Positions 1-23,862 of a stretch of 32,009 nucleotides of DNA are shown in pieces. Location of the stretch: the NCBI GenBank assembly GCA_032718475.1, contig JAUCBJ010007603.1, positions 1 to 32,009 of the forward strand, read 5' to 3'. Position 1 is the first letter of the stretch. Every line of letters starts with the position of its first letter. The translations under genes and the position numbers were made by a program. This DNA is from Nemertoderma westbladi (Eukaryota; Animalia; Xenacoelomorpha). The notes beneath the pieces are model-generated. The model was given only the letters and a program-made list of their open reading frames with translations. It made no database searches and was not told the DNA's origin.

Positions 1-3000
1 ATGTTCGAACAGGACCCTTGATGGGATTGCACCAGTAATTCGATGCTTGGTGTTACGGAGAGTAAAGATAACGGTAGATAGTCGGGTTTGAAAGCCCGCA
101 TTAGAGTTAGGAGTTGCACGCATCATCTTCTTCACTGTACGGTGAACACGTTCAACCATGCCATTTGCCTGGGGATAGCGTGCAGAAATTTCCACCAGCT
201 TACAGTTAATACTCTGTAAATATCCTTTAAATTCATAGGACCGAAATACTGGTTCATTATCTGAAACCACGGATAATGGGAACCCGAAAGTTGCGAATAT
301 TGTATTCAAATGAGGGATGAGACGGGTTGCAGATAACGATGGCAGCGGTGTGATGTCTATGTAGCGTGAACCATAATCAATGATACTGAGACACAATCGC
401 CCTTCGATATGGACACCATCAATAGCCAATTGCTCCCAGGGATGGTATGATGCAGATTGGTGCAATGGTTGTGGTGGAGGCAAATCGCTAGATAGCCTAC
501 AATAGTGGCAAACTGAAACAAAATGCCGCACTGCCTGTGACAAACCAGGCCACCAGACACTAGCACGGAGTAGGTCTATGACCTTTGTAATACCTGGGTG
601 CCCCTCATGTGCGAGTTTTATTAACATTGGACGTAAAGTAACAGGTACAACAATGCAGTTGTTGTATAATAAGATGGTGTTTTCATTAACAACAGCAGTA
701 CTCAAATCATGTCTAATTGAATAAAAAATAGACTCTGAGGCAGATAATGCATTCCAGTTATTAAAGTGTAGTCGATCCATAACCCGTGAAAGTTCAGCAC
801 ACATAGCAGTCTCAGTAGCCAGGAGGTTGATATCCACCAAATGTGATTCCAGTACAAGATTAACAAATATATCAGGTATTTCCTGCTGTGTAGGCTGGAC
901 ATTACTCAAAGGTGCTCGTGATAAGGTATCTGCAATGAGATTATGCTTTCCTGGAATGAATTCAACATCAAAAGCATATGGTAATAATGAAGTTAAGAAA
1001 CGTCCAATCCGTGGAGGGCACTGGTCAATAGATTTCTTGAAGATTGATCGCAAAGGCTGGTGATCAGATAGCACAATGAAATGGCGTCCGAGTAGATACT
1101 GACGAAACTTGGTGATTCCAAATACAATTGCCAAAGTCTCACGCTCAATCTGAGAGTAACGAGTCTCAGTACTGGTAAGAGAGCGACTAGCAAATGCAAC
1201 TGGTTTTAAACTACTCATGACCTTAGATGCAGCTCTCTCAGTCGATTGTAGAAGCACTGCACCTAAACCCACTGGAGATGCATCACATTGTATGTAAGTC
1301 TTGTAGTTTGTATTAAACAATTTCAATACAGGAGCAGTTGTAAGCATAACTTTTATAGTGTCAAGCGCATGTTGGCATGTATCAGTCCAGTAAAATATAG
1401 TATTGGATTTAAGAAGTTCACGGATAGGTGTGGTGATAGTGCTGAAGTGTGGCAAAAATTTTGCGAGGTATGTCGCCATGCCGAGAAATCTCTTACAATC
1501 TGTAACAGAACAAGGTGTTGGTAGAGAGGAAATTGCCTTAATCTTTTGTTGATCAGGTTTCAAACCTTCTTGGGATATAACATGACCCAAATATGTGATT
1601 TCTTTCACATTGAACTCACATTTATTTCGGTTGAGCTGTATTTGCATCTCATTGCAACGTTCTAGAACACGCTGTAATGCTAAGTCGTGTTCTGCCTGGC
1701 TTCTGCCAAAGACCAGGATATCATCTTCAAGGACGAGGACGCACATTATTCCTGTTAAACTGTTGGACATTATTTCATGATAATCTTCAGGTGCATTGGC
1801 AGCACCAAAAGGCAATCGTGTGTACCGATAGGTACCAAACGGTAGTACAAAGGTGGTTAATTTACTAGCACATTCTGTTAGCTGAATTTGGTGGAATCCA
1901 GAATAAGCATCGAGCTTTGAGAATACAACACTACCTTCAATCTTTGCAAAAAGTTCCTCAGGTGTTGGCATCAGAATACGCTTCCTGATGATAGCCTTGT
2001 TTAATTCACGTAGATCTATGCAAAGACGTAAGTTACCATTCTTTTTTCGAGCAATAACAGGAGGACTAAGCCATTCACTTGGTGTTTCATCATTTCCTAC
2101 TTTAACTATAACACCTTCGACACAAAGCTTATTAACTTCTCCTTGTAATTCATCCAACAGCCCAAAGGGAATTCTACGCAGAGGTTGCTGTTTCGGCACT
2201 ATGTTCTTATCAATAAGAATATCTAAAGGTGGAACTTTCATAGGTGGAAGAAATTCAGGTGGTTGGTTTATGGGTGATGTATTGCTTTGATGTTTCATTA
2301 TACCATTAACAGTTGGTTGTTGTGAATTAACTGAATGGGTATTTGTATGAATAGTAATCAATTCCAGTGCTGAAATATCATCCTGCCCTAACAAAGGGAT
2401 GGGAGCATCTTGAACTACAAACACCACACTGGATATGCTTCTACCATTATAGTGAAGTACAACAGGTGCTTTACCAAGAAGGGGGAGTGGCCCTTTAGCC
2501 ATATACCCTAATAAACGCTCCCCATTATGAGGCATAAGTAAGCGTGGTCCAATATATCGACTTGGTATAATGGTATGTTTAGTACCAGTATCCATAAGAA
2601 ATGTTAGTGTTTGCGAAGTTTCGCGTCCTGCAACAACAATATCCACCTTCCATTGATCTACTAATGGTACAATAGTATTAACATTGTTGTCATTAGCATT
2701 AAAATTGAATACTGAAACAATGTTAATGTCAGGATCCCTAAATCCCAAGGTTTCAGCTTCAGTACCCTCATCTTCCATATAATTTTCATCATCATACTCA
2801 TTGGGGAGAGGCTCATCAACAAAACAGACTGAACCTCCAGATCTTCCAGGGTTACTCCTGTAAGGTGTGGCCCCCATGGAGTAAGTCGATCTTTGGAAAG
2901 ACTGTTTGGACTTTGGCGGACCTTTCCGACACAAAGGTGAATTACGACTATGATGTAAAACTCCACAGTCAGAACAATACCGGCCATACGCAGGACAAGA

Positions 3001-3747
3001 ACCCTTTTTATGGGATCCGCAACAGAATCTGCACTGTGCCACCCCTCCAGATACTAAATTACTACTTCCAGTACTGCGAAAGTTAGATGGAGTAGATGGA
3101 AGAGAACGGCCACCTGGCCCACCTGGTCGTACAGCCAAAACATCTGAAGATGAACTACTGGTACCGGAAATCCTTACTGACTCACCTGTCATCTTTATTA
3201 TCTCATTACCTCCAGATGTAGCAGCCTCAAAGGCCCCAGCAAGGTTCCTTATATCTGTCAGTGTAGATGTTGGCGATTGTTGTAGAAGTTGTCGACGTAA
3301 CTCGTCGTTCTGGACTCCACAGATAAATGCATCTCGAAGTTTACTTTCGGGCGTCTCTTTTTCAAGTTCACAGAGTTTGGCAAGTTCACTTAATCCAGTA
3401 AAATAAACAGCAATTGTCTCACCGTCTCGTTGGCGGCGTGACATAAACCGGTGTCGCATAACTAAAATGTTGTGTTGTGGAGCGAAATACCGCTCAAAAT
3501 CTTCCAATAAATGTTCCATTGTGCGTTCACGAACATCATTATAAATAAAATTTTGCGATGCTATTTTCTGAGCCCCCTTTCCAATACATGTCATGAGCGA
3601 ACCAACTTTCTTCGACTCAGATACCCCATCATCCCGGAGCTCAATCGCATCGACCCAGTACTCGAAAGAGTCCTTCCATTCTCGAAACTCGAGAGCCATG
3701 TTTTCAGCCTGGCAGTCCAGGTTTGCGGGCGCCGGATATTTAGCCAT
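1..3747 (-). CDS. Gag-Pol polyprotein (>1249 aa, runs off the left edge)
   Basis: Manual translation from ATG 3747 (MAKYPAPANLD...): Gag RHRFMSRRQRDGETI and LRDAFICG, Cys/His knuckles, protease FLMDTGT, RT SKLDAYSGFHQI / YTRLPFG / VLEDDILVFG, RNase H CDASPVGLG, integrase HEGHPGI..WWPG..CHYC, LRNTKHRITG at the edge. Its absence from the ORF track is consistent with no in-frame stop before base 1. Confidence 0.92.
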   Translation of the reverse strand, partial: MAKYPAPANLDCQAENMALEFREWKDSFEYWVDAIELRDDGVSESKKVGSLMTCIGKGAQKIASQNFIYNDVRERTMEHLLEDFERYFAPQHNILVMRHRFMSRRQRDGETIAVYFTGLSELAKLCELEKETPESKLRDAFICGVQNDELRRQLLQQSPTSTLTDIRNLAGAFEAATSGGNEIIKMTGESVRISGTSSSSSDVLAVRPGGPGGRSLPSTPSNFRSTGSSNLVSGGVAQCRFCCGSHKKGSCPAYGRYCSDCGVLHHSRNSPLCRKGPPKSKQSFQRSTYSMGATPYRSNPGRSGGSVCFVDEPLPNEYDDENYMEDEGTEAETLGFRDPDINIVSVFNFNANDNNVNTIVPLVDQWKVDIVVAGRETSQTLTFLMDTGTKHTIIPSRYIGPRLLMPHNGERLLGYMAKGPLPLLGKAPVVLHYNGRSISSVVFVVQDAPIPLLGQDDISALELITIHTNTHSVNSQQPTVNGIMKHQSNTSPINQPPEFLPPMKVPPLDILIDKNIVPKQQPLRRIPFGLLDELQGEVNKLCVEGVIVKVGNDETPSEWLSPPVIARKKNGNLRLCIDLRELNKAIIRKRILMPTPEELFAKIEGSVVFSKLDAYSGFHQIQLTECASKLTTFVLPFGTYRYTRLPFGAANAPEDYHEIMSNSLTGIMCVLVLEDDILVFGRSQAEHDLALQRVLERCNEMQIQLNRNKCEFNVKEITYLGHVISQEGLKPDQQKIKAISSLPTPCSVTDCKRFLGMATYLAKFLPHFSTITTPIRELLKSNTIFYWTDTCQHALDTIKVMLTTAPVLKLFNTNYKTYIQCDASPVGLGAVLLQSTERAASKVMSSLKPVAFASRSLTSTETRYSQIERETLAIVFGITKFRQYLLGRHFIVLSDHQPLRSIFKKSIDQCPPRIGRFLTSLLPYAFDVEFIPGKHNLIADTLSRAPLSNVQPTQQEIPDIFVNLVLESHLVDINLLATETAMCAELSRVMDRLHFNNWNALSASESIFYSIRHDLSTAVVNENTILLYNNCIVVPVTLRPMLIKLAHEGHPGITKVIDLLRASVWWPGLSQAVRHFVSVCHYCRLSSDLPPPQPLHQSASYHPWEQLAIDGVHIEGRLCLSIIDYGSRYIDITPLPSLSATRLIPHLNTIFATFGFPLSVVSDNEPVFRSYEFKGYLQSINCKLVEISARYPQANGMVERVHRTVKKMMRATPNSNAGFQTRLSTVIFTLRNTKHRITGAIPSRVLFEH

Positions 3748-3917
3748 TATGATTACCGATTACCAGTCCAGTAGCTTTTAACCCAAACACGAAATACCAA
3801 AGTTACACCAGATACCAGTTTAAATATTATATTATTACAGTATTACTGTATTATTATGCCAGAATGTTGGAATACCGGACAGCCAGAGGCCTACCGCAGT
3901 ACCGGTACCTACCGGTA

Positions 3918-3933
3918 CCTACACACTGCGCCA
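3918..3933 (-). promoter_or_regulatory. Primer-binding site, tRNA-Ser-like
   Basis: Minus strand TGGCGCAGTGTGTAGG, 1 nt after the LTR end; complementary to a tRNA 3' end ...CUGCGCCA. tRNA identity is from recalled similarity. Confidence 0.75.
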
Positions 3934-3934
3934 A

Positions 3935-4023
3935 TGTAGTATGCAGCCAGATCTATATAATCATCAGTCTGTTAGTGCTATATCAATGCCGTCATAGCCA
4001 TGGCCTAATGTATAACCACTACA
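3935..4023 (-). repeat. 5' LTR of the Mag-like element (~89 bp)
   Basis: TGTAGT...ACTACA 6-bp terminal inverted repeat, adjacent to the PBS; partner LTR not in the window. Confidence 0.7.
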
Positions 4024-4960
4024 ACAGGCATTGTGTGATTTTCCATTGAATACAGAAGGATTGAAGAAAGCCACGGAGGATGACAAGTTTCTGCATATAG
4101 TGAAACGTACAATTGAGTTTGGCGAAACATCTCAGAAGTTCAGATAAGAAATTCCAACAGTATAAATCGGTTGAAAACGAACTTGCTATACATAAAGGTA
4201 TAGTGATGAGAGGGAACCGAATAATTATACCTGAGTTATTAAGACCAAAGGTGTTAGAAGAAATACATAATTCGCACCTAGGATTACAGAGAATTCTCTA
4301 CAAAGCAAATAATTTATGTTGGTTGCCAGGGATGAGCGAATGCACTTAGACTTAGCGAAATTAGAAGGCAATGTGTATTTAGGTTGAGTAGAATCAAGGT
4401 TCCAGTGGAGATAAGAAGAACATTCAGGAACGTCTTAGTACATATTTGATTCAAGACATAAATTCTTTATATACTGTACAAGGAAAGGAAAAACACCTAA
4501 TGAAATAATCTTCAAGCATCAGGTGAAAACATGGTTAGACCGCTTGTTACAATATCCTATACAATTAAGGGAAGAAGGAATGACAACAGGAAAATTCCAA
4601 ATAAATGAAGCTGTGTGGATAAAGAATTACAGTCGACCGAGAAGAGCAGAAATAAAGGTTAAATGGTTACCAGGGAAAATTATTAAACTTGTTGGTACAT
4701 GAACATACATGGTCCAAATGGGTGAGGGGGGAGGGACATAAGTGTAAAAAGAAATGTTAACCAAATTAGACACCGAGAGAATCCATGGCAACCAGAAGGT
4801 GTGGAATTAAATATTCAGACATCTTACGAGAACAAACAGGGAGATAAAACAGTAACAGACAGACCTTGAATACAGGGAGGAAAGGATTTAGAATCTCCTA
4901 ATGGAGTAGTGCCAAGAGATATGGAGTCAACCCCATATAGGAACTCTTATATTAATGTGG
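4024..4960 (+). pseudogene. Decayed Gypsy pol remnant (RH-IN linker, integrase zinc finger, GPY/F-like end)
   Basis: ENELAIHKGIVMRGNRIIIPELLRPKVLEEIHNSHLG..WLPG, later VWIKNY..KWLPGKII; stops and frameshifts; purine tract GTGGGGAGGA at 4957-4966 followed by TG. Confidence 0.8.
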
Positions 4961-5506: not shown

Positions 5507-5628
5507 ATGCAATATGTAATTTAATTGTTAAAATCATCTTATTATTATAATTATTAAAATATATTAATGTTTAATAAGTAATTAAACATTGCACCAGTTG
5601 CACTCAGTTATTCTTCGTCCTAATCGTT

Positions 5629-6794
5629 TGTAAAAGCTTTTGTGGGATAACTGATTCGTTCGCCTTGCTAACCGGTTCCCCCCCAGTCGCTGAATACTCT
5701 AAAAGGGGATCTATAACTCGAATAGCGCAAGCTACCAGCTTATTGGCTGATTTGCTGTACGCAGGTATCTGGGCTCTGTTTAATCGGCCAACCAGCCTAG
5801 GAAGGTTGCGTCATAGCCTTGTTTTTGTATCTCCCAATAGAATTTGAGTTAGCCTTGATTTTGACCTATCACAGAGCTACTGAACTGAAATTTTCCTATC
5901 TCACTGCTCTTTCTCTGTGTTGAACGGGAGCTTCGTGGAATAAGGGTAGTTGGTATCCTCGTATAGAGTAGTAGTCACGAGTTTTTCAAAGCCACGAAAG
6001 AACGGCTTTGTAGTGTTTTGTGCTTTCTGCTTTTTAGCTCAACACTAGTAGGTTTAATTATAGGGACATATATCCTTTAACTTGAATATCTCACTGCTAA
6101 AAATTACCTGCTCAATCAATACTGTATACTGCTATTTGTTGTCGGTTATTCATTATATTGGTTGATGAATTATTATATTGGAATAACGAGAATAATAACC
6201 CCGAAAACCCAATATTCTTGATATACCGAAGGTAAGAGAGAAAGGTTACCTATAACGATTGTGACTTATGTTAAAGTGGTTTGAAGTGAATCTAATGTTA
6301 TTTGATAGACCCTACATGAGTCAGTCTGTGTTCCTTTTATATGTGACTAAAATCAGTGAAGATTGGCAGATTAGTGTGCAGTATTGTGCAGCATTGTGTA
6401 TGAGTGAGTCTGTTAAAGAAGCAATTCCTAAAGAATGCGCCATATATGTGAATTATAATTAAGCCATATCGTTGTGAGTAGTTTAAGTCATAACTCTGTT
6501 TATATAGATAAAGCGCCACGTCTTAAAGGAACTGTTAATATTCCCGAAGGTGAATAATATTGTCAGAGATTATATAATACTGTCAGTCGAATAATACATT
6601 AGGCTTACATAGCAATAAAATTAAGCCGTCGAACCCAATCTCCCGGGAATATCCAGCGGGTGAATGATCGCGCACAGATTGGTTTCGACTAGTGTAGTGA
6701 ATCAAATACTTGTCATAGGCTAAAAGGCGATTTAATATCTAGAAGACATCTTAATTTGGCGGGTTAAACTGCCAAAGGTCTGAAAGCGCGAACA
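5629..6794 (+). repeat. 5' LTR (1166 bp)
   Basis: Direct repeat of 17105-18268; TGTAAAAGC...GCGCGAACA; AATAAA at ~6614. Confidence 0.97.
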
Positions 6795-6806
6795 TTAAAG
6801 GATATA
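6795..6806 (+). promoter_or_regulatory. Candidate self-priming primer-binding site
   Basis: TTAAAGGATATA directly abuts the LTR end and is the exact reverse complement of TATATCCTTTAA at 6069-6080; no TGG tRNA-type PBS is present. Confidence 0.65.
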
Positions 6807-6873
6807 GCTTCTTTATTGCAGTAAGCAATAAAGTTGAAAGTACCGGTCAACCGGTAAACCTGAACGGTCCATC

Positions 6874-6991
6874 TGTAGGTCAGTAGGCCCAACTGCCAGA
6901 ACCGGTACTGCCGTAGGCCCGTAGGTCCAACTGCCAGAACCGGTACTTCTGTAGGTCCGTAGGCCTAACTGTCCTAACCGGTACTTCCGTA
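6874..6991 (+). repeat. Three ~38-bp tandem repeats in the BEL leader
   Basis: GTAGGYCMGTAGGYCYAACTGYCWRAACCGGTACT-like unit x3. Confidence 0.85.
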
Positions 6992-7162
6992 TAAGTACAG
7001 CAGTATTATTCGATTTGATTATATATGCCGGTAGGTCTTAATAATTAATCGGGGACGCCTGGTTTTTATTGGGATTTTACTTAGGCCTATTTCTGTCAGT
7101 TTTATTTATTTGTAGGCCAGTATTGAGCAGAAGGCGTGTAAGCCTGATCAGATTGTGCAGAC

Positions 7163-7730
7163 AATTTGTAGGTTGAACTGTTGTCTGATTGTTATTGGGT
7201 CTGAACGGATTGCAGTGTGTGTAGATCACCTGTCCGATAAAGAACGGTTAGGAAGTAGGGGCAGCGAATGCTGTAAGGTAAACCCCCAACTAAAGAATAA
7301 GTCGTACTACTGGGTTAGAACGCATACTACCTAATTATTTCGGAGTCTGCATGTCCTGTAGTTTATTTAGGCTTGAGAGTAGTCTGTCATCGTTTAGTCT
7401 GTACTTTGTTTGTGTAAGTCTGTACGGGTAGCGTATAATTTTATTTAGATAATTTGTAGGCTGGATAGTTGTCTGGCTGTTATTAGGTCTGAACGGATTG
7501 CAGCGTGTGTAGATCACTTGTCCGATAAAGAACGGTTAGGAAGTAGGGGCAGCGAATGCTGTAAGGTAAACCCCCAACTAAAGAATAAGTCGTATTACTG
7601 GGTTAGAACGCATACTACCTAATTATTTCGGAGTCTGCATATACCGTAGTTTGTTTAGGCTTGATAGTAGTCTGTCAGTGTTCGGTCTGCATTTTGTTTG
7701 AGTAGTTTGTACGCGTAGCGTAATATTTAT
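7163..7730 (+). repeat. 288-bp tandem duplication in the BEL leader
   Basis: AATTTGTAGG... starts at 7163 and 7451; the central part is nearly identical. Confidence 0.92.
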
Positions 7731-8664
7731 TATTCAGAGTTTATGCGATTATCCGCAACATTCATTCCCCAAGTTTGTTCCTACAGTAATTGTGTTTGTT
7801 ATACATACCGCTATAGTTAAATTAACCCCGGTACTACACGGGCTGCTTGGCGTAGGTAAAGACTGGTGATTTGTGCATCGGTCACTCCAGCAGATGCCGT
7901 GGTTCTTTTAGCTGTTCAAGTATATTTAACTACTGATTATATGTTATACAAGTACTCGTACCTAATTTAGGGTTTAGTGTACAGTGCTTTCCGAAAGTAA
8001 TTAGTGTAGGCATTACATTTGTGGTGTAAAGTGGTTAATAGGCACGTTCGATTAGCTCTATTAACTTCTAGGTAGGAACACTCCGTGATACATAATGTAG
8101 TACCTATAGCGATACGGCTATAGGTCGTCAGGCGGTGGTATTTTCCTATCTGGACAACGCAGTGTATTTACTACTACTTATTATTTCAAATACCATAGTA
8201 CCCTGTCCGTTGTAATAACCAGATTTCTAACCCTTTGTTAGGCTGGTTTGTAGACTTCTTGTAAAATTACCCTAAAAATTAATATTTTGTGTTTTTTGTA
8301 AATTTTTGTGTTTATTTAGAGATTGTAATCTCACCCGAATTGTACGTAATTTGTAGTATTAAGTAACTTAGGTAAATTAGAATTATTTGTTTTAGTGTCC
8401 TATAAGTAACACTTCACTGAAAGCGCACCGCTTTGTGTAGTGATTACTCCCCAGAAATAATAACATTTATTTCAAACATTGACAAAACCCATTAAAACGG
8501 GTATATATATATTATAAATCAAATCTAACGATTTATAAATAGTAGGCCTACCATACAACCATTAGGTCTCCATATCAGTTGGTCTACTGCTCAAATAGCG
8601 GTAATAAAGTAAGTAAAGTAACCAAGTAACCCTAAAATTCAGAAATTCAATTATTTAAAATAAT

Positions 8665-8905
8665 TGATATACCGGTACTTACGATAGGCCTATTATCTTT
8701 ATTTCAATAAATTTAGGCTGAAATTATACCGGTACTTGTAATTAATTCTAGTCCAGAATTATATATACTACAAACTGTAAGCTGTATACCGGTATTCCCG
8801 ATAGGCCTATTATATATTTATATATTTGTGCTAAAATTATACCGGTATTCTGTGATAAACCTAGTCTGTAATAATAGTTATATATACTATAAGCATACCG
8901 GTATT
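8665..8905 (+). repeat. Diverged ~115-bp duplication rich in ATACCGGTA palindromes
   Basis: TATACCGGTA..CGATAGGCCTATTAT followed by AAATTATACCGGTA occurs twice. Confidence 0.6.
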
Positions 8906-9037
8906 CTAATATATTATATATCACGCTACACTGAGTAGCAGTACCGGTAATTAATTACTAGGCTAGCAGTTAATACTGAGTTACTAGACTTGCTCAGACT
9001 GTAATACAGCAGTAGACATTCAACTGTACACATAAAC

Positions 9038-12000
9038 ATGTCTGATACTAAGCAGAACCTGTCAGACAGTTTATTAGATGTAACTATCTGCGACTCAGAT
9101 AGAGGCGTAGAACCTTCTAGTCGTAAGTTCAGTTCACCTCCCACTGTGAGGAAAGTCATCCCTCCAGTAGTAATAAAAGAACCTAGGCTGGTCCAACATC
9201 GTAGGTCTATCATAGGCACTCGAGCTCAGGTCAAACGGGACCAAGAAGCAGCGGAACAGCAACAACCCGCGAGACAAGAACTTACTTCTCAACGGCCCAA
9301 CAGCTCCAGTAGTGAGGATACTGTAGAGCTGACACCCGAGCGCGGAGCAAGGATGACGGATGTGGTTTATTCGGATCCCCTTCTCATCCTTCCTGCAGCC
9401 GTACTCACTAGGTTATTGATCGCTGTGGAAGAACACCAGATCGATTGGGCGAGAAGCCAGCGTTCAACTAGAGATAGTTATGCTGGATACACAAGGGAAG
9501 AACTGAAGTCCATGGTCGAGTCGCAATGGAACTTCCCCGGACCCGGACTCCCGTTTGATTTATCAGAAGCTGCCTGGGAAGACATACACCGGATGGGAGT
9601 AGCCAAGGAAACCATCGATCCAGCTGTGTGGAAGAGGTCCGCAGCCGGATACGCACAGGGATTCTTCAGCTCTATAGAGCGATTAAAAGAACAACTGTTT
9701 CAACAACCTCAAGGACCTCAAGAGCAGGGATTGCTGCTTTATCAAGTTAGAGAAAGAATTCTACGAATCAGGCTAATCTTATCAGCCTTTGAGGAGGCTT
9801 CTAAACGAAGACAAGACACGTCGTTGCAAGTTGCCGTAAAGACTTGGTTTCAACGGGTGAGTCTCCAGGTTCAAGGAACAGCTCAGTGGAAAGCTCAGCT
9901 GGAGGAGCGATCAACCCATGGAGAATCAACAGACGCTACTTTTTCCCAAGTGGAAAGTGAAGCGACGGCAGAGAAACCGCATAAGAGGGATGCCATTGAC
10001 ATTTATCTGTCAGACTATCAACGTTTTTTAGGTGATGACGAGTTGAGGAGAAGGTTAGAGGGACTTAGCCCTAATAGTGAAGGAACCAAGCTTGTGTTGG
10101 ATGCCATCGATGTGGAAATGAGGGCTGCGAATCAGGCTAAATTTGATGAACAACTCCGCATCACACGAGTCCAGGAAGAACAAGTAAAGAAAAAACGTAT
10201 AGAAGACAGAAAGGCAGCGGCAGTAGCAGCAGCAGTGGCAGCTGCAGAAGCAGAAACAAAAGCGGCAGCGGCAGTGGCAGCGGCAGAGGCAAAAGCGGCA
10301 GTAGCAGCAGCAAAGGCAGCGGCCGAAGCAGAAACAAAAGCGGCAGCGGCAGAGACAAAAGCGGCAGTAGCGGCAGCAGAGGCGGCGGCCGAAGCGGAAA
10401 GAAAAGCGGCGGAGGCAGTGGCAGAAGCCGAACGGAGAGCGACTGAAGAAACCACCCAATTAGAATTGGAAAACATTCAGGAGAATCAAGACTGCATAAA
10501 TAAACAGTTAACAGCTAGTAATATGCAGATGATGAATCGATCTACTCCCAAAAGACAGGGATATACATCATCTGAAGAAGGCGATACCACCGATACTGAA
10601 GGCAAAGGAAATAGATCTCGTCTAAGCAGACGTAAAAGAACATTCCACCGTCAGAAATTGCCTGATTTGCCTCCAGCTGTTAGAAGGCAACTAAATAACA
10701 CCAACTTAGGTAGTACAGAGCCCACAGACCAAATAATTAAAATAGAAAGACTCCCTACTATAGTAGATGAGCCTGAAGTAATTAGGCCTGTTCTTGAAAT
10801 CACCCCTTCGGTGATAGACACACCTGTGCTCCCTGAAGCTACCTCTAAATTCCCTCTGCATAGCACTAAGCTACCTGTGCCCAGTAGAACTGCCCAGGAG
10901 ACAGTTCAAGTCCTGGACCCCGAGCGAAATATTCATGATTTGTCGCCCGTTGTCCCTCGTCCGCCCGCTACAACGTTGGCGACTCCCGCTTCGGCGGTCG
11001 AATGGGTGGACGAGAGACGGCGGGGGATGGATCTCCTGCTCGGGCAGATGCAGGAGACTGTCCAGCAATTCAAGGGCACAGTAAGGGAAAGTAGGCTAGA
11101 GTTGCAAGAAGTGCAGCAAAGTATCGCGCTAGAACGCGATAAATTAGTAAATACTCAAAGGGGTATACCACCACCCTCTGTAACAATGTGTCAACCTGTT
11201 AGGTCTGAAGTATCGCATGCGCAAGGTGTGGAGCCTACACGCATCTATACTGCTAGCGAAGTAGAAACTCCTATAGTGAACCCTATTAAGGGTAATTATA
11301 GACCTGTTGATAATGATATTCCATATAGAACTGATCATAATCCGAGAAATTTATATACCGATAACTCGATATTAAATAACACGATGGCCCAAGAAAGTTT
11401 TACGCGTCAAATGGCTAGAACCGAAGCCCGGCAAGCGGTGAAGGTGGGAGAGATCGTCAAGTTCAATGGAGATGAGATGAAATGGTTACCTTTTGATGAA
11501 TATTACAAAGATAACATACAGAACTCTGTACTATCTAATGGAGAGAAACTTAGATTCCTCATCGAGTGCTTGGAAGGATCTCCCAAGTTAATGGCGTTAA
11601 AGTTTATTGGACATCCAGACGGATTAAGACAAGTTTGGGACACACTAAACATCAGGTATGGTAATAGGACTAACATAGCTAGGTATTTATATGCGAAATT
11701 AATGGCGCCCCGAAAGTTTCTTAGCAGCGGGATTATAGAGTTTTCCGATGAGATTCAGGAGATCTGTAGACAACTAGATTGGTTAGGTAAGTCTCATGAA
11801 TACCAGAATTCTATGGTTGTAGGAGCCTTAGCATCTACTTTGCCCAAGGGTGGAGTAGGTACACGCTGGGACAAGAATGTGTTATATATGATGGAACAAC
11901 AACGACGAGACCCTACCATGACTGATCTCATGTCATTCTTAGATAGAGAAGTGAAATTACAGCTCCTAAGGCAGTCCAGAGAGAAGACATTGGAAAACAA

Positions 12001-14035
12001 GGTAAGTGAGAAACCCGTTTCTAGGAGAAGGGTAACACCAGTATGTTATACCGACGACGGTGAAAGCCAAACTTCTCAAGGAGAGGACAGCGGGAAAGAC
12101 ACTGACAGATCTTATTATGTCAATAAAATGCCTAAAGATCAGGTAAGTAAATCCGAGTCTCGACCCAATGACAGAAGGGAACCGGTACAAAAAACCCTTC
12201 CTACGTCTCCTAAAAGAATTCAGGTGAGAAAGCCCGAGGAAAGAACAAGTGTGCACCACATAGCACAGGTTAAAGTAAGTAACATCAAGCCGAAATGTGT
12301 GCTGTGCGACGGGCCCCACCGTTTAAATGCGTGTGATAAATTCCTGAGGAAATCACTAAAGGATAGACGTGAAGTCATGTGGGATAAGCGGTTGTGTTAT
12401 AATTGCCTCAGACGAGGACACCAACGGCGAACCTGTTACTCCGACGCAAGGTGTGCAAAGTGCGGCGCAAAACATCATATCTTGTTGCACACGGAATTCG
12501 AACGAAACAGCCCGAGTCAGGTAAGTGAGTCCGAACTACATGTCCAATTCAGTGATGTGAACAACACTGATCAATCTGAGATGGAAGGATTCTATACGGA
12601 CGAGTTCTCCGACGAAAACGAATCCTGTTACTTAATAAACACCACCGCAGTGTATCGAGCACTCGTGCATGAGAAAGACACAGACAGCGACCTTACCTTA
12701 ACTACTTCCGATCAACAACCATCTTGGAAAGCGCCAACTTCCAATATAGGAATCCGAGAATTTCCTGTAGTCCAGTTACGGGTCCACGGACCTCAGAAGA
12801 GCTATATAGTGAACGCCCTCCTGAACTCCGGTAGCACAGGAACATTCATCGATAAAGAACTAGCCGAAGACATCTTTGCTGGACAACCCAAGTTCCGAAC
12901 CAAGCTAAACATGTCAGGGATCATGCAGGTTTGGAAATCTGCTGTGGCTGCCGACTATTATATAGGTGAGTTGTCCACTCCACAGGATAAACTAGGAGAA
13001 CACAGTATAAGGTCAGTCAAAATGGTGGCAATAAAGAACTTCGCTACTACTCAAGCAGACCTTTATAATTGGGACGAGGATGAGAGCATCCAACATCTTA
13101 AGATACCTCGATTCCAGACTGATTATCCTGGAGTGCAAATACTCATCGGCCAAAACGCGCATGAGGCGCTGGAGACATTAGAGAAACGACCTACTCAACC
13201 GCAACCACTTCAGACCTATGCGGTAAGAACTAGAGTAGGTTGGTACCTTACTGGACCTTCCCGTAGAATGCTCAGGGAAAGACTGCTTCAAGATCGCGTC
13301 TGCCAGGTGAGTGAATGGGAAGACGATACTAGTGAGGGAGACGACCCAACTGAGGGAACACCACACTCCTCAGATAATGACAATCTTAACTCCAATGTAG
13401 ATCAATGGAGATATTGCCCCAAGACGATGAATACAGCCGACATCGCTTCCAGAGGAGCAACTCCTCAAGAACTGACAGATACTACAGACCGGTTAGGTGA
13501 ACCCGACTTCCTGAGTAAGGAGGATGAATGGCCTCCCCATCTTACTCCGATTGAGATTAGACCAGCCAAGGGAGCGGAGAAAGTCAAACCAAAAACCCGG
13601 ATGGGTGGAGCGGAGTTATTTGAACCCGGGATAGATCTGTCGGTATTACATATTGCCAGGGACGACGCCGTGGATCTGGACCTCCCCACCGCGAGTGGAT
13701 CCTTCATGAAGATCAGAGAGAGCGATTGGAGCTCTGGAACATCAGACGTCTCGCAGGGACTCTCACCTCTCCTGCAGGGAGCGACGGACCACTATAGCTC
13801 CTGGAATCGGCTTTGTAAGGCCGTCGTGTACCTAGAGCGATGTTTCTATCGTCACTATTCCAGGACGAAGAGGAAACCTGGAATTGTATTCGGGATGCAG
13901 CGACTCAATCACCCAGTCGGTCGTTTGTGTTTACCGGAAGGGAATAGAGGACTCTCCGGAAACTGTGGAAGGCAAGATTCTCTTCCCACGACCACCTCCC
14001 TAATCCTTCAAACATCTAGGGACTCCATAACGTAA
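9038..14035 (+). CDS. BEL/Pao Gag-protease polyprotein lacking RT and integrase (1665 aa)
   Basis: DUF1759-like KFNGDEMKWLPF..EKLRFLIECLEG..LNIRYGN; knuckles CVLCDGPHRLNAC, CYNCLRRGHQRRTC, CAKCGAKHHILLH; protease-like ALLNSGSTGTFI..ILIG..RTRVGW; post-RNase H motifs QWRYC..NTADIASRG..PDFL..EWPP and YSSWNRL; no YxDD or integrase motifs seen. Confidence 0.93.
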   Translation: MSDTKQNLSDSLLDVTICDSDRGVEPSSRKFSSPPTVRKVIPPVVIKEPRLVQHRRSIIGTRAQVKRDQEAAEQQQPARQELTSQRPNSSSSEDTVELTPERGARMTDVVYSDPLLILPAAVLTRLLIAVEEHQIDWARSQRSTRDSYAGYTREELKSMVESQWNFPGPGLPFDLSEAAWEDIHRMGVAKETIDPAVWKRSAAGYAQGFFSSIERLKEQLFQQPQGPQEQGLLLYQVRERILRIRLILSAFEEASKRRQDTSLQVAVKTWFQRVSLQVQGTAQWKAQLEERSTHGESTDATFSQVESEATAEKPHKRDAIDIYLSDYQRFLGDDELRRRLEGLSPNSEGTKLVLDAIDVEMRAANQAKFDEQLRITRVQEEQVKKKRIEDRKAAAVAAAVAAAEAETKAAAAVAAAEAKAAVAAAKAAAEAETKAAAAETKAAVAAAEAAAEAERKAAEAVAEAERRATEETTQLELENIQENQDCINKQLTASNMQMMNRSTPKRQGYTSSEEGDTTDTEGKGNRSRLSRRKRTFHRQKLPDLPPAVRRQLNNTNLGSTEPTDQIIKIERLPTIVDEPEVIRPVLEITPSVIDTPVLPEATSKFPLHSTKLPVPSRTAQETVQVLDPERNIHDLSPVVPRPPATTLATPASAVEWVDERRRGMDLLLGQMQETVQQFKGTVRESRLELQEVQQSIALERDKLVNTQRGIPPPSVTMCQPVRSEVSHAQGVEPTRIYTASEVETPIVNPIKGNYRPVDNDIPYRTDHNPRNLYTDNSILNNTMAQESFTRQMARTEARQAVKVGEIVKFNGDEMKWLPFDEYYKDNIQNSVLSNGEKLRFLIECLEGSPKLMALKFIGHPDGLRQVWDTLNIRYGNRTNIARYLYAKLMAPRKFLSSGIIEFSDEIQEICRQLDWLGKSHEYQNSMVVGALASTLPKGGVGTRWDKNVLYMMEQQRRDPTMTDLMSFLDREVKLQLLRQSREKTLENKVSEKPVSRRRVTPVCYTDDGESQTSQGEDSGKDTDRSYYVNKMPKDQVSKSESRPNDRREPVQKTLPTSPKRIQVRKPEERTSVHHIAQVKVSNIKPKCVLCDGPHRLNACDKFLRKSLKDRREVMWDKRLCYNCLRRGHQRRTCYSDARCAKCGAKHHILLHTEFERNSPSQVSESELHVQFSDVNNTDQSEMEGFYTDEFSDENESCYLINTTAVYRALVHEKDTDSDLTLTTSDQQPSWKAPTSNIGIREFPVVQLRVHGPQKSYIVNALLNSGSTGTFIDKELAEDIFAGQPKFRTKLNMSGIMQVWKSAVAADYYIGELSTPQDKLGEHSIRSVKMVAIKNFATTQADLYNWDEDESIQHLKIPRFQTDYPGVQILIGQNAHEALETLEKRPTQPQPLQTYAVRTRVGWYLTGPSRRMLRERLLQDRVCQVSEWEDDTSEGDDPTEGTPHSSDNDNLNSNVDQWRYCPKTMNTADIASRGATPQELTDTTDRLGEPDFLSKEDEWPPHLTPIEIRPAKGAEKVKPKTRMGGAELFEPGIDLSVLHIARDDAVDLDLPTASGSFMKIRESDWSSGTSDVSQGLSPLLQGATDHYSSWNRLCKAVVYLERCFYRHYSRTKRKPGIVFGMQRLNHPVGRLCLPEGNRGLSGNCGRQDSLPTTTSLILQTSRDSIT

Positions 14036-14559
14036 CAACATATGGAGTGGGTGTGTGACTCTATTATTTTATATTATTTTATTATTTTTATATTTCTGTA
14101 TGTATTACTATGTAATTTTATTATAATCGTTTTCTTTAATTTTATTCAGTAGAATGTTATTTTAGCGATTATTTAGTAGATTAGTGCAATATATATTCGC
14201 GTTTATTACTTAATTACGTATATATTATATTTAATGCGACGGCAAGAAATAATTCTTTTCCTCTTTCCTTACTGTCCGTATCATATTATAAATACGTGAC
14301 TACAGTAAGATGAAATGTCCGTACTTATTAAAGTACAATAAAGCCACTACTATATTCAAGTATTATTGGTAGGCAGAGTATTAGGAATGCAAAGTTCAGA
14401 TCCTCGTGTCTCGGCTAAACCAAGCTCTGGGTAGACCTTGGAAACGACTTGCCTCTTCACACTGACATTGCTTCGTGCGATATTGCTCTCATACCGTATA
14501 TTAAATAATACATATAGTAGCGTGATGTCCCTTTAACAGTAGCGTATAACGCAAAATAA

Positions 14560-14880
14560 ATCTGTTAAACCCTTTGACCATCTGTAATTCTAGTCGATTA
14601 AGATATCGCGGCACCCACCGATATACTTGAAAGACAAATTCTAGAATCAGTGGTTAACGTCCCCAGACAAGTTCTGGAATAAATCGGTGCCCATCTCAAA
14701 TATTAATTATTTAATATTTGCAAATCTAATAAATCAAAATCTGTAAAATTCAGATCCTTCAACAATTCTAGTCAATTAAGATATCGTAGCATTTACCGAT
14801 ATTCTTAAAAAAGACAATTGTCATAGAATTAAGGATCTTGTGTCCCTAGACATGTTCTAGAATCAAAATATGTCCATTTA
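14560..14880 (+). repeat. Diverged ~178-bp tandem duplication, each copy with a hairpin
   Basis: AATTCTAGTCRATTAAGATATCG..CCGATAT..AAAGACAA at 14586 and 14764, each followed by GTCCCYAGACAWGTTCTRGAAT. Confidence 0.8.
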
Positions 14881-15159
14881 ATTATCAAATAATAAAATTT
14901 CAGGGAATAAATTTAAATTCATGCCTTTTAATGAATTTAATAAATTGCCATTTTTACACAATTTATAAAGTTCCCAAAATTCCATTAATTAATAGATCAA
15001 GGGAGCGGAGATTTATCTTATCATGCGTATGAGTGTGTGAAAGTCTCCCAAACATAGTCAATAGCCGATAAAATTCATAAAGTCATGTATAAAACAGAAC
15101 ATTGACTATTAAAGAATACTATTAAATAACATCCCAGATCTGTATGCATTGGAATTACC

Positions 15160-15260
15160 CTAATTCTACCGCTAGCTTTGCATAATGTCACCATAGCAAC
15201 AACCACGCTAGAATTAGAATTGAGTTAAAAGAACAATAGAAAGCTTGTCCCATTGAATAG
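15160..15260 (+). promoter_or_regulatory. Candidate internal enhancer or promoter (POU-like, RFX X-box and Sox motifs)
   Basis: TTTGCATAAT 15177-15186, GTCACCATAGCAAC 15187-15200 (matches X-box GTNRCC-N0-3-RGYAAC), AACAAT 15232-15237. Confidence 0.4.
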
Positions 15261-17094
15261 CATAGGGAATAAATAGCGCACTACTAGTATCCAAGGATAC
15301 ATAATAATACAGTGACATTCCGGAAGGCATTGACTAACGGACAAATGGCCCGAATGTGTGTAATTTGTGACAAGTTGTGTGTGTGGTATTTGTGAGTTTA
15401 TAGGTGAATGTTACTGCTAAGGTGTGTTTACAGTAGCTAGTCGCAATCGTAAAAGTAACCTAACTCTCCAAGGAAAACCTGAAGTACATCTAAGCCTTTG
15501 GGACGGACAGTCGAGTGACTTGTGCCGGTTGTCGTTGTCGTTGTGCGGCTACGTCGTTGGCGAAAGTACAGCGGCGACGACACATCGGCGCTGAGGATCT
15601 CGTACTGTCCGGGGGTTGATTGGGGTAGGCAGCGACGCCCGCTCGCCTAAATATAAACTCATTATAATATGGATAAACTCATATATAGCAGATATGACGG
15701 AGTTGATAGAAGATGGTCTTGGTATCGGGGAGCGATATACTCTACTTTTACAAGCGTTTGTTGATAGCTTAATACGCGGCGACGTTAGTCCAACTGCTGC
15801 GGAGGACGATGGTCGTTATATCGAACCGCCAATGTCCCAAGAGCAGCTCGCGCGAGTTGGACTATAGAAAATTCGCTGCTCGATATACGCAGCGTAATGG
15901 TACGTATATGGGCTTCTTAACTACTGATCATCCTATCGATTTACACAATACGGACTATGTCGACTATATATCCTGCCCAGCGGAGTCGGAACCATAAACT
16001 GAAATTCGAATGCGAAAATTCTATTCGAAATCGGCTCGAAAGAAAAGACATTAAAGAAACAAATAAACGCGGTAACTCCAACATATATTTGGAATTCTTG
16101 ATAGAAGCATTGTAACAACAAATAAATATCATCCGCGTTTCCCCTACCAGACGTGCGTCTTTGGTATGTATTATTACGGTAAATGCCCTAGACCCAGCCA
16201 ATAAATGGAAAGACATAAACATCCACGGAAACGTTGTGTTAAACACAGTTGTGTTCGTTATATTTACTGGAGTTTCGAGCGAAACTTGTTTGACGTATCA
16301 CCTATGCTCACTCGGCTCTAACGATCCTAGAGTAAACCTACGATCAGAGTCCCGGAATACTCGGTCAAACCTCCTCATTCCTTAGTTGGACCTCAGACCT
16401 GCGATCCTGGTGGTGTCGCGGATCCTCGCGGACGGTATTCACTGTTCAAGATCTAGTGCTACCCTAACAATTAATCGGTAACACTCCGACAGTGATTTCT
16501 AGCTAGCCGCCCATCTTACCTAGCCGGATTATGACGCAGACACCTAATATCACTATCCAACCGTATGGTCGTCCCGTTTAACGCGATACAACCCTTCATC
16601 AAGGTGAAGGAGAGCGTTGTACGAAACGAGTTAAACGCTATTCTATAAAGATCAAAAAAGAAACCTGCGTTTGTTCAGATAAACGTAAGTTATAACAGTA
16701 AGTCCAATCGATAAACAAATTGGCCTTATCTCAGTTCGATTGGGAAACCTCGAATCTCAAAGAAGATATCAAGCTTAGAAAACCCTATTCTCTGCGAGAG
16801 TTTTGGACGAACGTATCCCATGACAAGCGGAGGAAAATCAGCTCGAGGAGAAGCATATCGAAATGGACGAGACACCGACCGTAAACCCAAACCTTTTAAT
16901 GCAATCATATTATACCCTTCACCCAGGAGTTATGGCCCTCCTAGTAAAGTGGCTTCCCCCAAAGAGAAAATGACTCTTGCTAGCTTTAAAAAACTGCGTA
17001 AACGCCGTCCGCGCAAGAAAGACTAACTGTTTAGAGTATTTATGTATATTAGAAATTGTGATTTTGTATATTTTATAGACTTAAATCCCATTTT

Positions 17095-17104
17095 CTGGGA
17101 GCGG
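17095..17104 (+). promoter_or_regulatory. Polypurine-tract-like plus-strand primer site
   Basis: T-run then CTGGGAGCGG directly abutting the 3' LTR TG. Confidence 0.65.
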
Positions 17105-18268
17105 TGTAAAAGCTTTTGTGGGATAACTGATTCGTTCGCCTTGCTAACCGGTTCCCCCCCAGTCGCTGAATACTCTAAAAGGGGATCTATAACTCGAATA
17201 GCGCAAGCTACCAGCTTATTGGCTGATTTGCTGTACGCAGGTATCTGGGCTCTGTTTAATCGGCCAACCAGCCTAGGAAGGTTGCGTCATAGCCTTGTTT
17301 TTGTATCTCCCAATAGAATTTGAGTTAGCCTTGATTTTGACCTATCACAGAGCTACTGAACTGAAATTTTCCTATCTCACTGCTCTTTCTCTGTGTTGAA
17401 CGGGAGCTTCGTGGAATAAGGGTAGTTGGTATCCTCGTATAGAGTAGTAGTCACGAGTTTTTCAAAGCCACGAAAGAACGGCTTTGTAGTGTTTTGTGCT
17501 TTCTGCTTTTTAGCTCAACACTAGTAGGTTTAATTATAGGGACATATATCCTTTAACTTGAATATCTCACTGCTAAAAATTACCTGCTCAATCAATACTG
17601 TATACTGCTATTTGTTGTCGGTTATTCATTATATTGGTTGATGAATTATTATATTGGAATAACGAGAAATAACCCCGAAAACCCAATATTCTTGATATAC
17701 CGAAGGTAAGAGAGAAAGGTTACCTATAACGATTGTGACTTATGTTAAAGTGGTTTGAAGTGAATCTAATGTTATTTGATAGACCCTACATGAGTCAGTC
17801 TGTGTTCCTTTTATATGTGACTAAAATCAGTGAAGATTGGCAGATTAGTGTGCAGTATTGTGCAGCATTGTGTATGAGTGAGTCTGTTAAAGAAGCAATT
17901 CCTAAAGAATGCGCCATATATGTGAATTATAATTAAGCCATATCGTTGTGAGTAGTTTAAGTCATAACTCTGTTTATATAGATAAAGCGCCACGTCCTAA
18001 AGGAACTGTTAATATTCCCGAAGGTGAATAATATTGTCAGAGATTATATAATACTGTCAGTCGAATAATACATTAGGCTTACATAGCAATAAAATTAAGC
18101 CGTCGAACCCAATCTCCCGGGAATATCCAGCGGGTGAATGATCGCGCACAGATTGGTTTCGACTAGTGTAGTGAATCAAATACTTGTCATAGGCTAAAAG
18201 GCGATTTAATATCTAGAAGACATCTTAATTTGGCGGGTTAAACTGCCAAAGGTCTGAAAGCGCGAACA
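17105..18268 (+). repeat. 3' LTR (1164 bp)
   Basis: Copy of 5629-6794; by eye it differs by a 2-bp indel (~6193) and one substitution (T6523 / C17997). Confidence 0.97.
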
Positions 18269-18402
18269 TCGTTATTTGCAAAGGCGTCATTGAAAGGATT
18301 CCAAATTTGTAAATAACTATTAATGTTGTTGAGAAATAGCTGAGATATAGGTGTTCAAATTATTAGTACTTAGTAAGTTAACTAGAGTCAACTTTTACGT
18401 CA

Positions 18403-20228
18403 CTACTAGGATCGGCATGCTGCATTGCAGCTGCATTTTTAAGAATGCTGTGCCGGCTTATCGACAAAATCGCACCGCCACAACTCCCTATCACCCATGA
18501 CATTTGCTAGATCATCCGCATCTTCAAGGCCAGTGTCCTTTAAGATGCGTCTCAAGAAAGTCATGGGTTGTCCACCATGCTTATTCACTCCATGAGGCTG
18601 CCAAAGTACAAGATTATGCACTGGCTGGTCCTCACGGCGAAAGCAATGTCCTGCAAAGCGGAGCCGATTTTGTTCTAGTGTCAAGCTTGGGGGAACCAAT
18701 GAGACACCTCCAATGTTATATAGTGTCTGGTTGGAGATGTGTGCATTGTACTTGACACAATGTACCCGGCGTAGCATTCTTGTGAATGTGCCATCCAGAG
18801 ATTTGGTGTCCTCAGCAGTTAGAGCCCAGCATGGACTCCCGTAGAGGAGTACTGGAACTACTGCTGCTCTAAATAATCGGACCTTAAGTTTCCGATTAAT
18901 TCTAGGTGACTTCCAAATCCTGGAAAGCCTATTCAAGGCTGCCCATGCCTTTCCCTTACGTATTCGAAGGTCCTCACCTGACTTCCGGATCCATGATCCC
19001 AGGTAACAGAAGTCGTCCACATGCTCAAGCATACCATCCTTTGAGCTTATGCTCATCCGATCAGAGACTTGCTGAGGACTTTCAAAGTTAACTGTCAGAA
19101 TTTTGGTCTTTCTGGAGTTAATAAAAAGACCAACACTAGAAGCAGCATGTTCTAATGAGCTGAGGAGCCGCTGGGCTCCCTCTAATGATTCTGAGAGTAC
19201 TCCTAAGTCATCAGCAAAGTCTAGATCAGTTAGGTACTTGGCAGGATTTCCTCGACTTCTGGAGCCAGTAGGTGGAGTTATCATCACCCCATCATCATTA
19301 TGATGATCTAAGGACATGCGTAGAACATAGTCAACCACAATAATGAACAAGAATGGTGCAAGTGTGTCTCCTTGGAGGACGCCCCATAACACTTCAAATG
19401 GTTCTGTGTCACCGTCAACAGTAGACACAAATGTTGTTGAACCATCGTATACTGATCTGATTGCTGCAATAATTTCATCAGGAATCCCATATAATGAAAG
19501 TATGCTGAACATACGTGAGCGAGAGACTGAATCAAAGGCCTTGAAGAAGTCAACAAAGATAACAGCCAGATGCCTGTCTTTCTTTTTTGATAACTCTTCA
19601 ATTATCCTTCTAAGTGCCAAAATGGGCTCCATGGTCCCACGACCTTTACGGAACCCATTCTGATTTCCACGTAGCAGTCTCTCAATGGGATCCCTGATGC
19701 GATTTAATAGAATTCTATTGTATAGTTTTGCAGCAATCGAGATCAATGAGATTCCCCGAAAAGAACCATAGAGTGTTAGGTTGCCTTTCTTGGGAACTGG
19801 CACCAACTTATTTGTTTTCATTTCTTGTGGGACTCTTGTTGTACGGTACATGTCTACTATGATGGGATAGATGAGCTTTAAACACTCAGGTATTTTAAAG
19901 ACCTCAGGGGGAACACCATCTACTCCACTGGCACGATTGGTCTTAATGCTCTTTGCAGCAGCATTCACTTCTGCAAAGGAGATATCGCCAATGGGAATAT
20001 CTGGGAGTACAGACTCAGACACTTTTACTTCTATAAAGTTATCAGGCAATACCCTGTCATTATTGAGGAGCTTTTCAAAGTGGGCTTTCCAACCATTGAG
20101 GCGATCGGCTGGTGATTCAGCCTTAACCTTGGTGGTTGGTTGGCTTTTCCGCCCAGTAAGCAGATTGATCGATTTCCATGCCTGGGATGATTGCCTGCTG
20201 TCGTCAGCATCATTGATGGCATCAACCT
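18403..20228 (-). mobile_element. 5'-truncated RTE-clade LINE
   Basis: 13-bp TSD AACTTTTACGTCA at 18390-18402 and 20229-20241; ~30-nt 3' UTR and (TAG)n tail. Confidence 0.92.
18439..20226 (-). CDS. RTE-clade reverse transcriptase, N-terminally truncated (no endonuclease domain)
   Basis: FRGISLIS, QNGFRKGR, FVDFFKAFDSV, GVLQGDTLAPFLF, LDFADD, FCYLGS; frame open up to the truncation point. Confidence 0.92.
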   Translation of the reverse strand, partial: VDAINDADDSRQSSQAWKSINLLTGRKSQPTTKVKAESPADRLNGWKAHFEKLLNNDRVLPDNFIEVKVSESVLPDIPIGDISFAEVNAAAKSIKTNRASGVDGVPPEVFKIPECLKLIYPIIVDMYRTTRVPQEMKTNKLVPVPKKGNLTLYGSFRGISLISIAAKLYNRILLNRIRDPIERLLRGNQNGFRKGRGTMEPILALRRIIEELSKKKDRHLAVIFVDFFKAFDSVSRSRMFSILSLYGIPDEIIAAIRSVYDGSTTFVSTVDGDTEPFEVLWGVLQGDTLAPFLFIIVVDYVLRMSLDHHNDDGVMITPPTGSRSRGNPAKYLTDLDFADDLGVLSESLEGAQRLLSSLEHAASSVGLFINSRKTKILTVNFESPQQVSDRMSISSKDGMLEHVDDFCYLGSWIRKSGEDLRIRKGKAWAALNRLSRIWKSPRINRKLKVRLFRAAVVPVLLYGSPCWALTAEDTKSLDGTFTRMLRRVHCVKYNAHISNQTLYNIGGVSLVPPSLTLEQNRLRFAGHCFRREDQPVHNLVLWQPHGVNKHGGQPMTFLRRILKDTGLEDADDLANVMGDRELWRCDFVDKPAQHS

Positions 20229-23133: not shown

Positions 23134-23862
23134 TTAAACTCTTATTTTCATTTGTATGTGATCTGCTGCCTGAAACACTGTGTAGGTTTTCCAGATCATG
23201 ACAGCTAGATTGTTTTCTCCATTGACATCTTGATCAAATACTGAATCATCATCTACAGTGGTACATTTTCCATACCACCAACCCATTTTCCTTTCAGAAG
23301 CGCAGCTCAAGTTTCCGTCTTTGTCGTTGTCAGTATCTTTAGTGGAAAATATCACACCACTGGGTATCACATTGTAATTAATTTCAGGAGAATGTTGAGG
23401 TCCTTCTATTTCTAACCGATATCCAGTGGCGGCGGAGTCAACACTGAAATAAGAATATTCCACATAATGATTTACATCATCGATCTTCACATCAATCCTC
23501 ATTCGAACTCCGTCTTTAGTTAGTCGGTGGATATTCTCTAGTCCCAACCAAAAACTGCCCATAATATCCCCGAATCCGTGTCTGTAGTCTAACATATACT
23601 GATCGAAATTAGGGGAGTTCATTGATATTCTATTGAATATGACCAACCACGACAGACCAGCTGGTTCCTTGTCACAGAGGACCATGTTATTGAGACCGAA
23701 TTCTTTATTAGGATACGGTCCGGTACGTCCTATTCTGTTACAAATGAGATATTGATCGGCAGAGCATTCATTGTTCTCCCCATATAAATCTCTATGTTTT
23801 TGAAGATTACCATCAATTATCCTATCCATAATTCTCATTGAACTTTCGAATAAAGCTGTAAA
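23134..23862 (-). CDS. Fibrinogen-related domain (FReD; ficolin/angiopoietin-like) protein, last coding exon
   Basis: WLVIFNR, YRHGFGDIMGSFWLGLENIHRLT, FSTKDTDND, GWWYGKC; acceptor TATTTTCCAG at 23863 opens phase 0 into FTALFESSMRIMD. Confidence 0.9.
   Translation of the reverse strand, partial: FTALFESSMRIMDRIIDGNLQKHRDLYGENNECSADQYLICNRIGRTGPYPNKEFGLNNMVLCDKEPAGLSWLVIFNRISMNSPNFDQYMLDYRHGFGDIMGSFWLGLENIHRLTKDGVRMRIDVKIDDVNHYVEYSYFSVDSAATGYRLEIEGPQHSPEINYNVIPSGVIFSTKDTDNDKDGNLSCASERKMGWWYGKCTTVDDDSVFDQDVNGENNLAVMIWKTYTVFQAADHIQMKIRV

Follow-up and report, generated by a model that had tools for sequence, protein, structure and literature searches.

A BEL/Pao-type retrotransposon of Nemertoderma westbladi that probably primes reverse transcription from its own LTR

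Introduction

Self-priming has been described for the LTR retrotransposons Tf1 and Tf2 of Schizosaccharomyces pombe and proposed for Tj1 of S. japonicus and for Tcn1; in the case of Tf1, pairing extends over the first 11 bases, and RNase H cleaves the RNA at the 11/12 boundary (parts of PMC4600332 and PMC7175516). Self-priming is also predicted for plant Tcn1 and for the TAR lineage of Ty1/copia (Houba, Osr-1) in the part of PMC6317226 used here, so that independent origins outside Tf1/sushi have a precedent. TAR is a plant Copia lineage, and a splice-built primer is not mentioned for it in that part of the paper. The portion of PMC3601003 used here speaks of hairpin priming solely in connection with chromoviruses and a hypothetical precursor.

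In the case of BEL/Pao, the ICTV profile of the Belpaoviridae lists an 18-nt primer-binding site (PBS) for tRNA-Arg or tRNA-Gly, a complete pol and a length of 4.2-10 kb, and calls the replication of the family poorly understood (PMC8742986). A term search of the accessible text of three BEL/Pao papers (PMC554778, PMC3118150, PMC6238403) retrieved no passages on the PBS or on priming, and no report of BEL/Pao self-priming was found in a literature search that most subscription papers, older element descriptions, Repbase and GyDB lay outside.

Here we analyse an LTR element of 12.6 kb (5629-18268, plus strand) within a window of 32,009 nt, the whole stretch of N. westbladi DNA examined (GCA_032718475.1, contig JAUCBJ010007603.1, positions 1 to 32,009). 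Like Tf1/Tf2, Tj1, the Tf1/sushi elements and Tcn1, as far as the cited parts of the literature describe them, it has no tRNA site and its PBS can pair with its own LTR transcript over about 11-12 nt. However, Tf1/sushi belong to Ty3/gypsy, whereas the DUF1759 gag and three zinc knuckles of the window element place it in another superfamily; the Tf1 primer consists of the first bases, whereas that of the window element is probably internal to R and, in most relatives, would be spliced together. Moreover, the window copy, unlike Tf1, would have to take both RT and RNase H from elsewhere, and its priming is predicted from sequence, whereas priming in Tf1 has been shown by experiment.

Structure and coding content

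The element is bounded on the plus strand by a 5′ LTR of 1166 bp (5629-6794, TGT...AACA) and a 3′ LTR of 1164 bp (17105-18268), both delimited by LTR comparison, and flank comparison revealed a target-site duplication TCGTT at 5624-5628 on the left and 18269-18273 on the right. One substitution and one 2-nt indel are all that separate the two LTRs, and this near identity, together with TCGTT on both flanks, indicates a very recent insertion. A short polypurine-tract-like sequence, GGGAGCGG (17097-17104, plus strand), lies directly against the 3′ LTR. Direct TG...CA repeats of 0.2-1.2 kb and a short target duplication are those of BEL/Pao elements. Many diverged copies are present as contigs in one public sequencing run (X1).

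A single ORF (9005-14035, plus strand, ATG at 9038), characterised by Pfam, by reading of its translation and by tblastn, comprises in this order a long low-complexity N-terminus, a DUF1759 gag domain (PF03564, E 1.5e-11 in Pfam), three zinc knuckles read off the translation, a protease-like domain whose catalytic motif is degenerate, and a C-terminal stub of RNase H. DUF1759, the triple zinc knuckle and the protease region correspond to a BEL/Pao gag, not to the Ty3/gypsy chromovirus ancestry of Tf1/sushi, and PF05380 was found in all seven protein matches examined; the closest database proteins are mostly about 25-35% identical. Of the BEL/Pao pol, with RT, RNase H and integrase in order, there is only the RNase H stub, and tblastn with eight full-length BEL polyproteins as queries detected neither RT nor integrase inside the element, a lack that the earlier note does not mention. 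Judged by its sequence, the element is a non-autonomous BEL/Pao derivative and not a full member, whose enzymes must be borrowed. In terms of the ICTV description, it resembles Belpaoviridae in its LTR length within 0.2-1.2 kb, BEL gag, protease-like domain, short polypurine tract and single ORF, but departs from them in the missing tRNA PBS, the incomplete pol and a length of 12.6 kb that exceeds their range.

The leader (6795-9037) is unusually long at 2.2 kb and includes a 38-nt repeat in three copies (6865-6978) as well as a tandem duplication of 288 nt (7159-7704), and an Ala-rich block of 12/21-nt repeats occupies the gag N-terminus (10204-10448). A gap of 3 kb separates the ORF from the 3′ LTR (14036-17104); its small frames at 15595-15867 and 16715-17026, the second ending in a basic KKLRKRRPRKK stretch, have no Pfam match and could be exons of an accessory gene.

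Elsewhere in the window, a Gypsy-type element on the minus strand (1-4030) has a canonical TGG primer site at 3933 and an open gag-pol ORF (1-3759) that continues beyond the window edge and in which Pfam recognises RT, RNase H and integrase. On the plus strand, 4100-4700 contains fragments of a disrupted integrase from a further LTR element (Integrase_H2C2 at 4104-4346). A LINE-type RT ORF (RVT_1, DUF6451) lies on the minus strand at 18439-20226, with several partial copies in opposite orientation (26030-26484, 28715-29202 and 31688-32009). A single-frame fibrinogen C-domain ORF (23134-23880, minus strand) lies beside a 38-nt tandem array (23787-24584), and a 30-nt minisatellite (29224-29791) is open in several frames.

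The primer-binding position

The primer-binding position TTAAAGGATATA (6795-6806, plus strand) follows the 5′ LTR with zero spacer and lacks TGG. Its 12 nt are the exact reverse complement of TATATCCTTTAA at 6069-6080 (plus strand) in the 5′ LTR, the predicted self-primer copy, and the 13th base is unpaired; a second predicted primer copy lies in the 3′ LTR (17545-17556, plus strand), and within the 32-kb window the complementary 12-mer is confined to the two LTRs. No TGG was found within 8 nt of the LTR end, nor an 18-nt PBS for tRNA-Arg or tRNA-Gly, and the lack of TGG excludes the CCA end of a mature tRNA as primer. ARAGORN found no tRNA anywhere in the window, and Rfam gave no match in 5600-9100. 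Both the missing TGG-type PBS and the zero-spacer complement had been pointed out in the earlier note, and inspection of the LTR end and direct comparison of the two sites agree with it on each count. A PBS complementary to the own LTR in the place of a tRNA site is a feature of Tf1/sushi elements.

A chance match in AT-rich DNA, selected from a large number of scanned LTRs, has to be weighed against this reading. With contiguous matching, at least 12 nt were reached in 12 of 20,000 dinucleotide shuffles of the LTR (6e-4), in line with the few in 10,000 that the earlier note had roughly estimated, and at one of the 29,553 remaining positions of the window beyond the two LTRs. With a lenient statistic, which accepts offsets of 0-5 and either a contiguous match or any GT..AG join and which was used for all family comparisons, 12 nt were reached in 22 of 1000 shuffles and at 8 of 1000 pseudo-sites, a more comfortable figure for coincidence. 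The minus-strand Gypsy element, taken as a control within the window, has its TGG site and a self-complement of only 6 nt. The very young age of the element, which is without any other primer site, also speaks against coincidence. Among contigs of run X1, none of 16 substitution rows falls at either 12-mer, a result that tells nothing either way, since differences near contig ends are unlisted.

Comparison with other BEL families

For comparison, 28 full-length BEL polyproteins were aligned, metagenome contigs were scanned, and of 576 confirmed loci the best 80 were retained; viral contigs yielded no BEL locus, and a match of 27 residues (L001) was left out. Comparison of the 5′ with the 3′ copy fixed the 5′ LTR end in 18 loci, which form 11 families, the ends of L002, L011, L032 and L033 being set by eye to within a few bases. 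L035 shares the site of L081, its own LTR being incomplete, and represents L081 in the larger of the two trees, which has 65 rows.

Every one of the 11 fixed-end families has an exact complement of 10-15 nt in its own LTR, at a spacer of 2-5 nt from the LTR end as against zero in the window element, and a TGG primer site is present in none of the 12 elements (window element and 11 families). With the lenient statistic, shuffles matched these complements in 0 to 34 of 1000 cases per family. In 8 of the 11 families, the complement appears only once a GT..AG intron of 76-366 nt, with a GTAAG or GTGAG donor, is removed from the LTR, the primer copy being the splice junction itself; in the other three (L002, L032, L043) no splicing is needed, the complement being contiguous as it is in the window element, where splicing was tested as a source of a longer complement and none was found. 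In a 12 x 12 cross matrix, the best match of each PBS is with its own LTR once LTRs of the same PBS type are set aside. Nine PBS types occur among the 12 elements, since a single PBS is common to four of the 11 families, which match each other and are treated as one type. The off-diagonal matches of 11-12 nt (lenient statistic) are those of the L056 PBS with the window LTR and with L033. The PBS GTTCGAATTTG and a splice-made CAAA/TTCGAAC are common to L007, L011, L013, L018 and L026, whose LTRs are otherwise dissimilar.

The remaining 62 loci comprise 26 with less than 250 nt upstream of the ORF and 36 that were scanned without a fixed end. Among these 36, there were nine plausible matches and four more on inspection (L004, L019, L028, L078), and 23 stayed without assignment; the 13 loci are post hoc and carry lower weight, the ends of L004, L019 and L029 having been chosen post hoc. 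A zero spacer, as in the window element, is found in three post-hoc loci. In the sister families L028, L056 and L081, several primer letters differ and the changes are mirrored in the PBS. In the 65-row tree, sister pairs can also differ in the intron, L004 being spliced and L043 contiguous, L019 spliced and L029 contiguous. The contiguous-type LTR of L043 is 177 bp long (1685-1861) and, 30 nt ahead of its primer copy, carries an acceptor-like TACTTTTAG at almost the spacing of the window element (31 nt), with no obvious donor in that LTR.

The earlier note had made complementarity in relatives, written in different letters, a check of its proposal, and this is what the metagenome BEL loci show in all 11 fixed-end families. 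The same result, together with the strict shuffle figure, makes a coincidence in the window element highly improbable, although the element is not nested among the comparators. Priming by a host tRNA half, a tRNA fragment or another small RNA, the LTR match being secondary, would have a parallel in the half-tRNA priming predicted for some Copia lineages (part of PMC6317226). However, nine PBS types that each track their own LTR, and a match that in eight families needs a splice junction, which a host RNA leaves unexplained, render such a primer very unlikely. Self-priming, taking together all versions in which the 12 nt of the own LTR act as primer, is on the other hand a likely explanation, given the exact 12-nt complement, the missing TGG and the own-LTR match in 11 of 11 families.

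These families are distant relatives, the best identity of the window protein with any of them being 27% over gag-protease. In a gag-protease tree of 22 rows chosen from those 65, in which nine loci lacked enough gag to be placed, the window element forms a long branch (2.72) outside a 13-row clade that includes the metagenome loci (support 97/94) and also apart from a six-row group with the fly protein P0008 (100/99); being a long branch, its placement is unreliable. The fasttree placement of the element among long branches in the 65-row tree was dropped for this more careful tree. A Sinbad/Suzu-like lineage, which the earlier note held probable, is thus a tentative label, since such clades are defined by RT, RNase H and integrase phylogeny and the window element lacks an RT. 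With comparators so distant and the window element outside their clade, the transfer of a mechanism from them to the window element is by analogy, and the direction of intron gain or loss is not given by the tree.

Transcription start and RNA folding

A further claim of the earlier note was that transcription starts at about 6068-6070, so that, as in Tf1, the first 11-12 nt of the RNA would be the primer. A pyrimidine-purine step (CA) at 6067-6068 is compatible with such a start. In Tf1 there is no spacer between LTR and PBS, and the zero spacer of the window element resembles this arrangement. On the other hand, a TATA-like box about 30 nt before the primer copy is found in none of the 12 LTRs (window element and 11 families); such boxes lie 64, 133-135 and 165-167 nt before the primer in three of them, and nine have no strict TATA box. 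In the window element, the sole match of the motif list upstream of the primer copy is TATAAC at 5712-5717 (plus strand), a possible promoter. In the splice-type families, a Tf1-like start would demand a first exon of only 4-10 nt.

Splice signals, scored with approximate consensus frequencies, bear on the same question. In 5650-9100, the acceptor with the highest score ends at 6037, just 31 nt before the primer copy, and together with a moderate donor at 5765 it delimits a possible LTR intron (5765-6037, plus strand), which splice scoring and a diverged copy of the element both suggest. This acceptor, TGCTTTTTAG, is retained in the diverged copy, a contig that keeps the acceptor and an island from 6042 to about 6077, whereas the 255 nt upstream fail to align at 80%. 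The best-scoring donor of 5629-9100, AAG/GTAAGA at 6232-6237 (plus strand), lies downstream of the primer copy, and splicing from it would strip U5 and the PBS from spliced mRNAs.

The sole canonical poly(A) signal wholly within the LTR, AATAAA at 6614-6619 (plus strand), lies 533 nt after the primer copy; in 10 of the 11 comparators a poly(A) signal follows the primer by 6-127 nt, and L002 has none. Priming from a poly(A) end was considered for the window element and rejected, since 6036-6075 contains no variant of the signal and the signal itself lies 533 nt downstream.

RNA folding gives a partly different answer. Both hairpins that the earlier note had placed beside the site, one of 8 bp with one G-U in U5 (6755-6776, plus strand) and a perfect one of 9 bp in the leader (6811-6833, plus strand), came out with pairing probabilities of 0.87-1.0 in the three transcript models folded. 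The helix between primer copy and PBS has a probability of 0.98-1.0 when the RNA starts at 6055-6070, in favour of the Tf1-like start, as against 0.015-0.15 for starts at 6050 or earlier or for the spliced model; yet forcing this helix costs just 2.4 kcal/mol in 823 nt, a narrow margin on which to decide for that start. A weak second helix of 7 bp with two G-U pairs, between 6060-6066 (plus strand) and 6810-6816, is not significant alone, and for 11 of the 12 elements the test of such an upstream second helix gave no significant result (p 0.04-0.70).

The motifs thus point to a start upstream of 6069 and folding to one at 6055-6070. With no TATA at -30 and the strongest acceptor 31 nt upstream, retained in the diverged copy, a start at 6068-6070 is doubted and probably lies too far downstream; an upstream RNA start is favoured, if modestly. 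Of the earlier proposal, then, tRNA-independent self-priming has gained from the complementarity kept in relatives, and the transcript start at 6068-6070 is somewhat disfavoured, so that a strictly Tf1-like primer made of the first 11-12 nt seems rather unlikely, though a serious contender.

The helix might instead be structural, joining the RNA ends (for example the PBS and 17545-17556) or serving packaging or dimer formation, the primer being made otherwise. Co-variation of the two strands fits a structure as well as it fits priming, and the primer copy would be present twice in genomic RNA if it lies within R. A downstream start would leave only the 3′ copy in the RNA, and candidate motifs for such a start are CTCACT at 6090-6095, which resembles an initiator, and a TATA-like stretch at 6059-6073. 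However, the paired strand starts 0-5 nt from the LTR end in all 12 elements, in the orientation that would direct a 3′ end into U5, and none of the 12 offers a TGG site to prime from, which leaves a purely structural role improbable.

Proposed mechanism

Read from these motifs and comparisons, the feature is most likely a self-priming signature, which would be a modified form of an established mechanism in a superfamily for which tRNA primers have been described. In its best version, to which we give somewhat less than even credence, the primer lies inside R of an RNA that starts upstream of 6069, and only the 3′ end of the primer fragment pairs. The R-region copy at 6069-6080 would pair in the RNA with the PBS, the 12 bases after U5, and RNase H from an autonomous partner would cut at 6080/6081, by analogy with Tf1, creating the 3′ end of the primer. 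RT would then extend it through U5 and R into a minus-strand strong-stop DNA of 714 nt (6081-6794), which would be transferred to the 3′ R, the sequence upstream of the cut being rebuilt from the 3′ LTR. As the primer would be copied in plus-strand synthesis, the PBS would be rewritten in each cycle and both sites would stay matched, which would explain the co-variation of PBS and LTR.

The contiguous families could be accounted for in the same scheme if the 3′ LTR copy were spliced before copying, producing an intron-less LTR; the window element would then represent the version without an intron, most families of the system splicing their primer together. Whether a large, non-insect part of BEL/Pao does without tRNA and primes from an internal piece of R, mostly spliced together, is a wider proposal that we regard as evenly balanced.

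Significance

Self-priming has so far been shown only in Tf1-type Gypsy elements and predicted in a few plant lineages. If the present reading is true, BEL/Pao would be a third LTR superfamily priming without tRNA, annotation tools that demand a tRNA PBS would miss such elements, and tRNA-fragment silencing directed at the PBS would leave them untouched. The primer of many families would owe its existence to a splicing event; on the wider proposal, in which most families assemble it by intron removal, host splicing would license replication. Finally, an intron-less form on a deeply separate branch would mean that the mechanism is ancient in the group or has evolved repeatedly.
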